A stretch of DNA of 59,406 nucleotides from an uncultured Gammaproteobacteria bacterium (GCA_964523705.1 CAZFYA010000004.1:1-59406), one strand, 5' to 3'; numbered from the stretch's first letter, positions 32,702 to 34,325 are shown. The notes: generated by a model not told the origin, from the sequence alone. A program made the numbers and translations.

Positions 32702-33412
32702 TCAAGATTTATTTTTCACACGATTTATAATTTTTTCACTGGTTAGCTCTCTTAGGGCATCAGATGCTATCCAGCGAGCGGTTTTTGAGTCATTTTTTTT
32801 GAGTTCAGTTGCGGTTTTTACTGCAAGATTATATAGGTTTTCGTTTTTAAACTTGCCAAGATTTCTTAAAGCCCAGTTTACTGCCTTTCTAACGTAATTT
32901 CTATCATCCGTTGCTTCTCTTTTTATAATTTCAAAAAAAGAATAAAAGTTTTTATCAGGTGCATTTTTATCATGGACAATAAGTCCTGCCATTAATGAAA
33001 ATCCTGCCCTTTTTTCAAATTCTTTTTTTCTTTTACTCCACTCAATTGCCTTTTTATAGGCTAGGGGAGTTTTATCAAAAAGAGAAGTTGTTGCCTGATC
33101 ACAAATATCCCAGGAGTCAAAATCAGAAACCCATTTTTCCATTTGTTTTTCAGTTACGTTTATTGGGTCTTCAATAAAAACAGCTAAAAGCCTTGCCTCA
33201 TGAATACCTGTTTCCCAAAGCTTAAGCGATAGTTTGTGTAGTTCAACCGAGTTTGACGCGGCTTTTTTAATTTGTTTTGCCATTGGACGAAGAATTGTAA
33301 GGGGAATGCCTAATATTTTTGTCTTTGGAGTAATTCCAAATCTTTTCATACCTAAAACATTTTTTTTGTTTGAAAGAGAGTTTAGTTTTTTTAAGATCTC
33401 TTCAGTTTTCAT
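32702..33412 (-). CDS. DNA alkylation repair protein (AlkD-like HEAT-repeat glycosylase)
   Basis: LWETGIHEARLLA, DFDSWDICDQ, DDRNYVRKAVNWALRNLGK. Confidence 0.9.
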   Translation of the reverse strand: MKTEEILKKLNSLSNKKNVLGMKRFGITPKTKILGIPLTILRPMAKQIKKAASNSVELHKLSLKLWETGIHEARLLAVFIEDPINVTEKQMEKWVSDFDSWDICDQATTSLFDKTPLAYKKAIEWSKRKKEFEKRAGFSLMAGLIVHDKNAPDKNFYSFFEIIKREATDDRNYVRKAVNWALRNLGKFKNENLYNLAVKTATELKKNDSKTARWIASDALRELTSEKIINRVKNKS

Positions 33413-33430
33413 AAGTTATATTTTACCATG

Positions 33431-33467
33431 TCGGGGTGCTGGGAATTGAACCCAGTGTCTCACGGTC
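33431..33467 (-). pseudogene. 3' half of a split tRNA-Pro-like gene
   Basis: GA CCGTG AGACA CTGGG TTCAATT CCCAG CACCCCG A: anticodon-stem 3' strand, variable loop, T arm and acceptor 3' strand with A73. Confidence 0.75.
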
Positions 33468-33471
33468 TTTA

Positions 33472-33584
33472 CCCTGTTAAATTTGTCGGGGAGAAAGGGA
33501 TCGCACCTTCGACCTCACGGTCCCGAACCGTGCGTTCTGCTACTGAACTACTCCCCGTATTCAATATTTCCGGATTTAACAGGG
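33472..33584. repeat. 11-bp perfect inverted repeat CCCTGTTAAAT (33472-33482) / ATTTAACAGGG (33574-33584) enclosing tRNA-Pro(CGG)
   Basis: Read directly from the sequence. Confidence 0.9.
33486..33557 (-). tRNA. tRNA-Pro(CGG)
   Basis: CGGGGAG TA GTTC AGTAGCA GAAC G CACGG TT CGG GA CCGTG AGGTC GAAGG TGCGATC CCTTT CTCCCCG A; C1-G72 and A73 Pro identity. Confidence 0.92.
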
Positions 33585-33586
33585 CA

Positions 33587-33618
33587 GGCGATGCGTGATA
33601 CCGATTCACTACACCCCG
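33587..33618 (-). pseudogene. 5' half of a split tRNA-Pro-like gene
   Basis: CGGGGTG TA GTGA ATCGGTA TCAC G CATCG CC; the acceptor strand pairs perfectly (7 bp) with CACCCCG of the 33431-33467 half, but not with the inner tRNA. Confidence 0.75.
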
Positions 33619-33625
33619 CTCACTG

Positions 33626-33654
33626 ATTATATTCCAGATTGTTTGATTTTTAAA
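33626..33654 (-). promoter_or_regulatory. Promoter for the nested tRNA locus
   Basis: TTTAAA-N17-TATAAT with the -10 box ending 7 nt before C1 of the outer 5' half. Confidence 0.55.
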
Positions 33655-33679
33655 GCAAAATGTATTATCATTCCAAAAA

Positions 33680-33997
33680 ATGACAAGATATTTTACTTTT
33701 CTTGTGATATTTTTTATCCTTCCAACTGTATTTTTGTGGCTTTTTTACCTTAAAACACTTAAAAAATATATTTTAGTATTTTTACTAACAATTTTTTGTA
33801 CATTTGTTTTTGGCATGCCCTGGGATTTATTATCTGTTCGAAATGGAGTTTGGGGTTATGACTTAATCCCAAATATTGGAATTTGGCTTTTTGGAGGTCC
33901 TAAAAATGGTCTTCCTTTTGAAGAAGTAATTTTTACCCTTTTTACACCTCTTTTAATAGCGTCTTTAACAGTGGTTTTAAAAGAAAAACTTAATTAA
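33680..33997 (+). CDS. Lycopene-cyclase-domain membrane protein (CrtYc/Yd-like)
   Basis: Three TMs; PWDLLSVRNGVWGY, GLPFEEVIF (PxEE motif). Confidence 0.7.
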   Translation: MTRYFTFLVIFFILPTVFLWLFYLKTLKKYILVFLLTIFCTFVFGMPWDLLSVRNGVWGYDLIPNIGIWLFGGPKNGLPFEEVIFTLFTPLLIASLTVVLKEKLN

Positions 33998-33998
33998 T

Positions 33999-34325
33999 AT
34001 GTTTGAAAAATATACTTATCTTTTATACACATTATTTTTTACTTTTCCTTTAATTCTGGTATTAATAATTGCTAATTTTAAGCTTCTTAAAAAGAATCTT
34101 AAACCAATTCTGTTAACAACTGTTTTTATTACTGTTTTTTACGGTATGTTTTCTTGGCAAATAGCGCTTGAAAACAGACTATGGTGGTATGGAGACGATA
34201 GGATTTTAGGAATTACTCTTCTGGGGACAGTAATAGAGGATATAATCTGGTGGTTTTTAATTAGTTTTTTAATTTCTTTTTTTACAATAGTAGCAGTTAA
34301 GAGAGTAGAAAGATTTAAAAAATAG
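33999..34325 (+). CDS. Second lycopene-cyclase-domain membrane protein
   Basis: Three TMs; LWWYGDDRILGITLLGTVIEDIIWW; 1 bp from the previous gene. Confidence 0.62.
   Translation: MFEKYTYLLYTLFFTFPLILVLIIANFKLLKKNLKPILLTTVFITVFYGMFSWQIALENRLWWYGDDRILGITLLGTVIEDIIWWFLISFLISFFTIVAVKRVERFKK

Follow-up and report, generated by a model that had tools for sequence, protein, structure and literature searches.

The genes of structured RNAs can be interrupted in several ways. Bacterial 23S and 16S rRNA genes carry intervening sequences that are excised by RNase III without re-ligation, leaving an rRNA that works as fragments. MITEs and REPINs are small, non-autonomous inverted-repeat elements. Islands and phages that integrate into tRNA genes span kilobases, encode an integrase, and rebuild the gene from a copy of its 3' part that they carry, so that this part is left behind as a direct repeat. 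Bacterial tRNA genes can also harbor group I introns, and in archaea and eukaryotes there are tRNA introns that are removed enzymatically as well as tRNA genes that are split or permuted, as in Nanoarchaeum, Caldivirga, and Cyanidioschyzon (PMC4090602, PMC4390854). A full-text literature search yielded no description of a tRNA nested within a tRNA in bacteria. One such arrangement had been noticed in the DNA studied here, and the idea in the original prediction that it may be an unknown type of intervening sequence is supported by our results.

The arrangement lies in the window, by which we mean the whole 59,406-nt stretch of DNA that was analyzed. Our reading is that, in this Levybacteria-like genome (Microgenomates, Patescibacteria), a resident tRNA-Pro(CGG) gene has probably been interrupted and replaced by a cassette that carries a foreign-type tRNA-Pro(CGG) on a stalk. 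We refer to the split outer gene as the shell, to the complete gene within it as the inner tRNA, and to the whole as a nest. The 188-nt unit and its promoter are made up as follows.

33626..33654, minus strand: promoter-like TTTAAA-N17-TATAAT, 10/12 matches, with the -10 element ending 7 nt ahead of the shell
33589..33618, minus strand: shell 5' half, 30 nt, with the acceptor 5' strand, the D arm, and the anticodon-stem 5' strand CATCG
33574..33588, minus strand: cassette 5' arm, CCTG-CCCTGTTAAAT, with a GC-rich family-type terminus at its start
33558..33573, minus strand: leader CCGGAAATATTGAATA, unpaired, 16 nt, between the stalk and the inner tRNA
33486..33557, minus strand: inner tRNA-Pro(CGG), complete, 72 nt, found by ARAGORN and Rfam RF00005
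33468..33485, minus strand: cassette 3' arm, a CAA trailer, then ATTTAACAGGG-TA (the stalk 3' strand), then AA
33431..33467, minus strand: shell 3' half, with G37-A38, CCGTG, the variable loop, the T arm, the acceptor 3' strand, and A73
33459..33467, minus strand: 9-mer GACCGTGAG, a copy of inner-tRNA positions 37-45 (33522-33514)

All elements of the tRNA-in-tRNA layout that had been predicted were recovered in their places on the minus strand by reading of the sequence, by ARAGORN, and by Rfam. The shell 5' half reads CGGGGTG-TA-GTGA-ATCGGTA-TCAC-G-CATCG, and the 3' half, preceded by TAAA, reads GA-CCGTG-AGACA-CTGGG-TTCAATT-CCCAG-CACCCCG-A. The two halves pair as claimed, with acceptor strands matching in 7/7 positions, and their anticodon stem (CATCG/CCGTG) has the C-C mismatch that had been pointed out. 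Between them, the cassette occupies 121 nt (33588-33468), of which 48 nt are not tRNA, where five anticodon-loop bases used to be. Its arms form an 11-bp perfect inverted repeat (CCCTGTTAAAT at 33584-33574 and ATTTAACAGGG at 33482-33472) that had been proposed to extend the outer anticodon stem. In the predicted fold this repeat grows to a 13-bp, GC-clamped stalk (5' strand 33586-33574, 3' strand 33482-33470) that abuts the shell anticodon stem, beginning after a 2-nt by 5-nt internal loop beside the mismatched stem. The 11-mer repeat alone is within chance (2 matches against 2.2 expected, allowing at most one mismatch), the arm pair is present once in the 59-kb window, and the 188-nt unit folds with z = -3.1. 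Open reading frames across the insert reach only 52-71 aa and lie on the opposite strand. The promoter-like site upstream, where the original prediction had also put a promoter, is the sole candidate found for a transcript of shell plus inner tRNA, and a search between the shell 5' end and the inner tRNA found no second minus-strand promoter-like site.

The neighbors of the unit are an alkD-like gene and two lycopene-cyclase-like genes. As an observation in its own right, the latter are two adjacent ORFs of ~105 aa (33680-34325, plus strand) that sit between tRNA-Arg(CCT) and the nest and have weak lycopene-cyclase-domain matches (PF18916), one of them below the curated cut-off; their counterpart in the syntenic relative L120 is one 211-aa gene.

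The cassette invites comparison with each of the systems described above. Like a group I intron, it is an anticodon-loop insert in a bacterial tRNA gene, with a patchy distribution and with filled and empty sites among relatives; unlike a group I intron, it has no ribozyme core and carries a complete tRNA with the same anticodon. The group I candidate was rejected, in line with the earlier claim that the core is lacking. Rfam Intron_gpI has no match in 33400-33660 at the gathering threshold or at E<=10, loop residues 32-36 are missing, and the only U33-compatible join of the halves gives AAA. This join, which had been predicted as C-T-AAA-GA, is also the one that ARAGORN makes when introns are allowed, calling the shell a tRNA-Phe(aaa) with a 116-nt intron, i(32,116).

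The enzymatically removed introns of archaea and eukaryotes, and the split and permuted genes related to them, are likewise protein-free loop inserts, D-loop sites included; related inserts are found in different tRNA genes, and the insert helix continues the stem of the interrupted arm (PMC4090602, PMC4390854). Our cassettes differ in that the hosts are bacterial, the cargo is a whole tRNA, and there is no bulge-helix-bulge. In the window fold, this motif (two 3-nt bulges 4 bp apart) is not present, and both bulge-helix-bulge and kink-turn readings of the junction loop were ruled out by inspection. In locus L099, discussed below, the two terminal bases of the insert pair with one another, which leaves no room for a bulge-helix-bulge.

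With the rRNA intervening sequences, the cassettes have in common an extended helix in place of a loop in a structured RNA, the lack of a protein, and patchiness among strains, but they disable the host tRNA and supply a replacement. The likeness to MITEs and REPINs lies in a length of ~120 nt, inverted-repeat ends, a single long hairpin, the absence of an ORF, and related ends with different interiors. Unlike those elements, all cassette copies found are in cargo-matched tRNA genes, and no partner transposase was identified. No target-site duplication flanks the window insert, and none accompanies the clean junctions in L099 and L125; the junction of L124 is ambiguous by up to 3 nt owing to a run of G. 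Islands and phages, too, target tRNA genes, frequently in the anticodon loop, and make up for the damage through tRNA sequence borne on the element, whereas the cassette is 121 nt long, contains a whole tRNA, and is flanked by the split halves of the old gene. An island was rejected on the size of the insert and on its neighbors, which do not include an integrase. An integron attC site was considered as well, given that GTTAAAT…ATTTAAC fits GTTRRRY/RYYYAAC, but the order is wrong and the boxes are absent from other nests.

An arrangement of this kind could have been created by assembly, and misassembly had been named in advance as an objection. We exclude it. In five runs from three independent studies, Logan contigs cross the junctions of the unit with zero differences, covering 33430/33446 to 33607 or beyond (X1, 961 nt; X2, 923 nt; X4, 189 nt, 33430-33616; X6, 204 nt; X8, 292 nt). 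The contigs of all runs do break, but only at 33430-33461 in the outer T arm, whose 31-mers recur in the tRNA-Pro genes of other members of those samples, as might be expected if assembly or binning had joined pieces of different organisms at shared tRNA words. The inner junctions, however, are unique sequence that is covered without a difference by all five runs, and we attach practically no credence to such an artefact.

Evidence for what the shell once was comes from syntenic relatives, which we defined as contigs encoding the closest homologues of the downstream alkD-like protein. Gene order in L120 and L121 is the same as in the window (PEGA, sortase, tRNA-Arg(CCT), lycopene-cyclase-like gene, tRNA-Pro, alkD, NDK, M16), with 83% identity in the alkD-like protein and 84.5% in the flanking DNA. 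At the same distance from the alkD start, both have one intact tRNA-Pro(CGG), CGGGGTGTAGTGAATCGGTATCACG-CATCG-TTCGGGA-CGATG-AGACACTGGGTTCAATTCCCAGCACCCCGA. The shell 5' half is identical to this orthologue and to L114 in 30/30 positions (the intact genes of L114 and L056 match it exactly or with one difference), and the stretch from AGACA to A73 is identical to L120, again in 30/30 positions. Because they are identical to an intact orthologous tRNA, the halves are real, and on this comparison they are the resident tRNA-Pro(CGG) gene. Relative to the orthologue, TTCGG (loop residues 32-36) is gone and the 121-nt cassette is there instead. Furthermore, two bases of the anticodon-stem 3' strand have changed, from CGATG to CCGTG, such that it now equals the corresponding strand of the inner tRNA.

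The remaining 60 nt of the shell are unchanged, amid intergenic DNA that is ~20% diverged downstream and hardly alignable upstream, from which we infer that the nested state is derived and probably recent. Although an unchanged shell fits a recent insertion, purifying selection acting on it, or homogenization, could produce the same picture. Since the orthologue and the inner tRNA both have the anticodon CGG, the replacement would have been like for like. The proposal that one Pro isoacceptor was swapped for another thus stands as regards replacement and falls as regards a different isoacceptor. As read from its sequence, the shell is dead in the window, because it has no anticodon and its anticodon stem is mismatched, so that its halves cannot be joined into a tRNA that decodes.

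The 9-mer GACCGTGAG that had been reported as shared does occur in both the inner tRNA (33522-33514) and the shell (33467-33459), and it had been put forward as the repeat that mediated the replacement. An origin within the locus, by in situ duplication or by recombination between two neighboring tRNA-Pro genes at this 9-mer and with no mobile cassette, would account for the shared word, and L115 does combine an inner tRNA with a shell of the same type. Yet the inner tRNA of the window has just 64% identity with the resident gene; at this site, relatives possess one tRNA-Pro, not the two ordinary adjacent tRNAs that the original prediction had allowed for; and the cassette termini and the CAGGGTAAAG junction recur in unrelated genomes and with other isotypes. 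We consider a local rearrangement very unlikely. The repeat itself does not drive the replacement and looks like a by-product; the junctions of L124 and L099 are clean without one. Its copy in the shell may be either a conversion patch or a co-carried piece of a donor shell; the shell 3' halves of L127 and L129 likewise copy their inner tRNAs.

The inner tRNA matches Rfam RF00005 with 59.7 bits (E=2e-10), has zero non-canonical pairs, and has no encoded CCA. Among 139 tRNA-Pro genes in the fetched DNA, its nearest relatives, at 78% identity, are the inner tRNAs of two other nests, L137 and L136, and we class it as a foreign type. With L137 it has in common the acceptor stem CGGGGAG/CTCCCCG and the anticodon stem CACGG/CCGTG, and the two nests share the 3' junction CAGGGTAAAG(G)A. 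A search for a donor with an exact 28-mer (inner T arm plus acceptor) found no match in viral contigs or in JGI metagenome contigs. The inner tRNA is presumed to be a working gene, and we assume that it is the sole tRNA-Pro(CGG) of the genome. Its elbow is atypical, with the D loop AGUAGCA and the T loop UGCGAUC: A18 and G55 are found where G18 and U55 are near-universal, and G19 and C56 are retained. It is possible that A18 and G55 form a co-varying elbow pair and do not reflect decay.

If the resident gene was replaced in the way that we favor, a 121-nt protein-free cassette would have entered the anticodon loop of tRNA-Pro(CGG). For hosts with such small genomes, an insertion of this kind would be lethal unless it brought a replacement tRNA along. 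The whole unit would then be transcribed as one RNA from the old promoter of the shell; the inner tRNA would be released by RNase P at its 5' end and by RNase Z, or an enzyme equivalent to it, after A73, and would then receive CCA. The two pieces of the shell would be by-products that decay over evolutionary time, and the outcome would be turnover of a tRNA gene. None of the RNA runs searched for the stretch contains it.

Alternatively, the shell may have been kept as a non-decoding RNA. Its acceptor and T-arm module could offer sites at which RNase P and RNase Z detach the unit from the alkD-like mRNA downstream, or it could serve as a scaffold for folding or as a decoy. Such a role would fit the intact acceptor, D, and T arms of the shell and their identity to the orthologue. 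It would also fit the alkD-like gene, which starts 19 nt downstream with no terminator-like site found between it and the unit, and the halves of the shell in L115 and L064, which have changed less than the unalignable spacer beside them. In other members of the family, however, shells have lost bases of the D loop, pairs of the T stem, or entire arms (L064, L232, L016-Arg, L100, L105) and have gained further hairpin inserts (L129, L138, L074, L137), and the inner type of L232 is free-standing in L123 without a shell. The identity in the window can be explained by recent insertion. We regard a retained role for the shell as unlikely, and the processing scaffold or decoy suggested earlier finds no support here, where shells in relatives decay and vanish. 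Under the replacement that we favor, RNase P and RNase Z may nonetheless cut the acceptor and T-arm module of the shell and so separate the unit from the alkD-like mRNA, although we give this step low weight.

Our searches of other genomes reveal that the tRNA-in-tRNA layout is not unique and that the window is, by these comparisons, one member of a large family in Patescibacteria. A genome scan with a 25-mer from the shell T arm plus acceptor, using one genome per species, returned 119 loci, almost all of them Patescibacteria tRNA-Pro genes; four are nests (L016, L050, L074, L115), and their stalks are unrelated. A metagenome scan for a tRNA 3' end followed by 25-55 nt and the shell T arm gave 15 loci, and 15/15 were tRNA-Pro within tRNA-Pro. 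Nests of Arg(TCG), Arg(CCT), Ala(CGC), and Gly(TCC) were added, outside the selection imposed by search patterns, through a screen for leader/trailer pairing on 333 usable predicted tRNAs in ~1 Mb of fetched DNA and through ARAGORN with introns allowed. The total after de-duplication is ~31 nests in ~1 Mb of fetched Patescibacteria DNA. Every method of finding nests needed tRNA-like flanks or a stalk, and therefore both the frequency of nests and the rule that a shell is always recognizable are biased. Many of the compared sequences are metagenome assemblies, in which chimeric contigs at tRNA words are possible, L128 in particular.

The shell anticodon equals the inner anticodon in 11/11 nests where that of the shell survives (L124, L133, L136, L125, L128, L127, L099, L064-Arg, L015, L091, L126). 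We attribute this match between cargo and target to the presumed lethality of insertion without a replacement tRNA. Inserts are found in loops of the shell, either anticodon or D, and never in a helix; once the site is the variable region (L126). The D-loop inserts come after GGATA or after AAT in tRNA-Arg genes at five loci, two of which, L015 and L064, have a shell whose anticodon arm is intact.

L015:4100-4330, D-loop nest, tRNA-Arg
L100:7800-7990, D-loop nest, tRNA-Arg
L016:2430-2620, D-loop nest, tRNA-Arg
L070:2560-2760, D-loop nest, tRNA-Arg
L064:400-600, D-loop nest, tRNA-Arg

Many cassettes share the termini CCYGCC…GGCRGG. Across isotypes and insertion sites, they start with CCTGCCCGCC, CCCGCCTGAC, CCCGCCCGAC, or (TT)GCCCGCC and end with GGCAGGCGG, GGGCAGG, GGCGGGCGGG, or GGCGGGTGAAGG; the D-loop cassettes of tRNA-Arg have CCCGCCCGAC…GGCGGGCGGG. 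The inner part of the stalk is variable yet complementary, as in the window (GTTAAAT/ATTTAAC) compared with L137 (AAAAAATT/AATTTTT). The window has the features of the family, namely, an inner tRNA with the same anticodon as the gene it interrupts, a stalk in a loop of the shell, an empty site in L120/L121, and GC-rich termini. Its termini, CCTGCCC…CAGGG, are a shortened and partial match, in the first 7 and last 5 bases only, to CCTGCCCGCC…GGCAGGCGG of L124, L133, and L136 and to CCCT…CAGGGTAAAGGA of L137.

Comparisons within the family point to both gain and loss. Two pairs, L124 vs L002 and L129 vs L097, combine a near-identical upstream flank with a site that is filled in one member and empty in its partner, a pattern that suggests recent gain. 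The state of the shells varies from flawless to almost lost. If the insert were taken out exactly, a perfect 7-nt loop with its anticodon would return in L124, L133, L125, and L099, the junctions being CT|…|TCGGA in L099 and TTCGG|…|G(G)T/A in the other three. Elsewhere, shells are mismatched or chimeric (L136, L127, L128), the whole anticodon arm of the shell is lost (L050, L115), there are extra layers plus extra D-loop hairpins (L129, L138), or only one half of the shell is left (L100, L105, L070). The nests of L115 and L064 are orthologous: the inner tRNA is identical, the stalks are near-identical, and the spacer is unalignable, and their shell halves are ~10% diverged, including a D-loop deletion and a T-stem mismatch.

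At the syntenic locus of the window, tRNA types G, G', A, and that of the window itself are found. The intact gene of L120 and L121 is of type G. L232, from the same clade, has a type-A inner tRNA beside the 3' remnant of a type-G shell; in L123, a type-A gene stands free, without a shell; and in L122 and L230, type-G' genes stand free at the same locus. The series of intact type-G gene, nest, remnant, and free-standing gene matches what would be expected of repeated invasion followed by loss of the shell.

A further observation concerns tRNA-Pro shells that are dead. Several hold additional hairpins of 30-70 nt that carry no cargo, start with (T)CCC, end with GGG(A), and lie mostly in the D loop, and a cargo-less CCC…GGG hairpin is found in the shell of L015 too. 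A search of the 1-Mb sample for cargo-less inserts of 10-90 nt found none in the anticodon loop of any live tRNA gene.

L129:6930-7230, cargo-less hairpins in a dead shell
L138:900-1115, cargo-less hairpins in a dead shell
L074:1366-1620, cargo-less hairpins in a dead shell
L137:130-215, cargo-less hairpins in a dead shell
L050:470-560, cargo-less hairpins in a dead shell

The flawless shells raise the question of whether the cassette is an intron. In that scenario, the inner tRNA would be freed by RNase P and RNase Z, the stalk trimmed, and the outer halves ligated, and one gene would yield two tRNAs. The four loci in which removal of the insert restores loop and anticodon are what such a scenario calls for, and the confinement of inserts to shell loops is as expected if the outer RNA must stay foldable. 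Against it are the missing loop residues 32-36 of the window, the C-C mismatch, and a single possible join that gives AAA; there is no bulge-helix-bulge motif and no group I core, and shells decay in relatives, which is unexpected if they are needed. For the window, we judge an intron to be highly improbable, more so than either a local rearrangement or a retained role for the shell. Because shells decay, splicing is not needed in the cassette family. Nevertheless, members with flawless shells might undergo excision at the RNA level and hence represent a third kind of tRNA intron.

That cassettes which replace resident genes are mobile can be argued only from their distribution; no enzyme, target duplication, or excised intermediate was found. 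One candidate is homologous recombination of imported DNA, with the conserved halves of the tRNA serving as homology arms. This is favored by the converted 3' stem in the window, the chimeric shells of L127 and L128, the comparison of L129 with L097, in which identity stops inside the tRNA after its first 14 nt, and the identical tRNA 25-35-mers that are common to different phyla. The other candidate is a trans-acting enzyme that would recognize the hairpin or termini and insert into tRNA loops. It is favored by the termini that are shared across isotypes and sites, by the confinement of inserts to loops, and by the cargo-less CCC…GGG hairpins, which are found only in dead shells. Phages were considered as carriers: terminus motifs matched 91 loci in viral contigs, 0 of them with a tRNA between the motifs, and these are therefore chance matches of short GC-rich patterns. 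We advance only tentatively, and at less than even odds, the broader proposal that Patescibacteria harbor protein-free mobile cassettes, each with one tRNA on a stalk that has the shared CCYGCC…GGCRGG termini, which are specific for single-stranded loops of tRNA genes (anticodon or D) and persist only where the cargo matches the gene that was destroyed. Such a family could constitute a self-compensating "tRNA gene replacement drive." Its movement could depend on an enzyme that recognizes hairpins or single-stranded DNA or on recombination between tRNA halves across phyla.

If our interpretation is right, the tRNA genes of these small genomes, many of them single-copy, are repeatedly overwritten by imported copies borne on cassettes. 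Core translation genes would then be transferred horizontally and turned over by a route that has gone unrecognized, and this could explain why different tRNA types are found at one syntenic locus among close relatives. There are also implications for annotation, in that standard tRNA finders return the inner gene only or return wrong genes, such as the tRNA-Phe(AAA) called by ARAGORN. The members with flawless shells offer a test for bacterial tRNA splicing that involves neither a ribozyme nor a bulge-helix-bulge.

Two other features of the compared DNA deserve mention. A short hairpin, GCGGGC-TT-GCCCGCCGAAGC, recurs immediately upstream of tRNA-Gly and tRNA-Pro genes in several contigs of Parcubacteria type (L041, L084, L085, L027), and it has the word GCCCGCC in common with the cassette termini. 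In addition, tRNA-Phe(GAA) genes carry inserts of 242-266 nt after position 34, with no inner tRNA (L006:5040-5354, L024:1127-1465, L087:4713-5028, L092:265-582, L106:5509-5832); these are probably group I introns.
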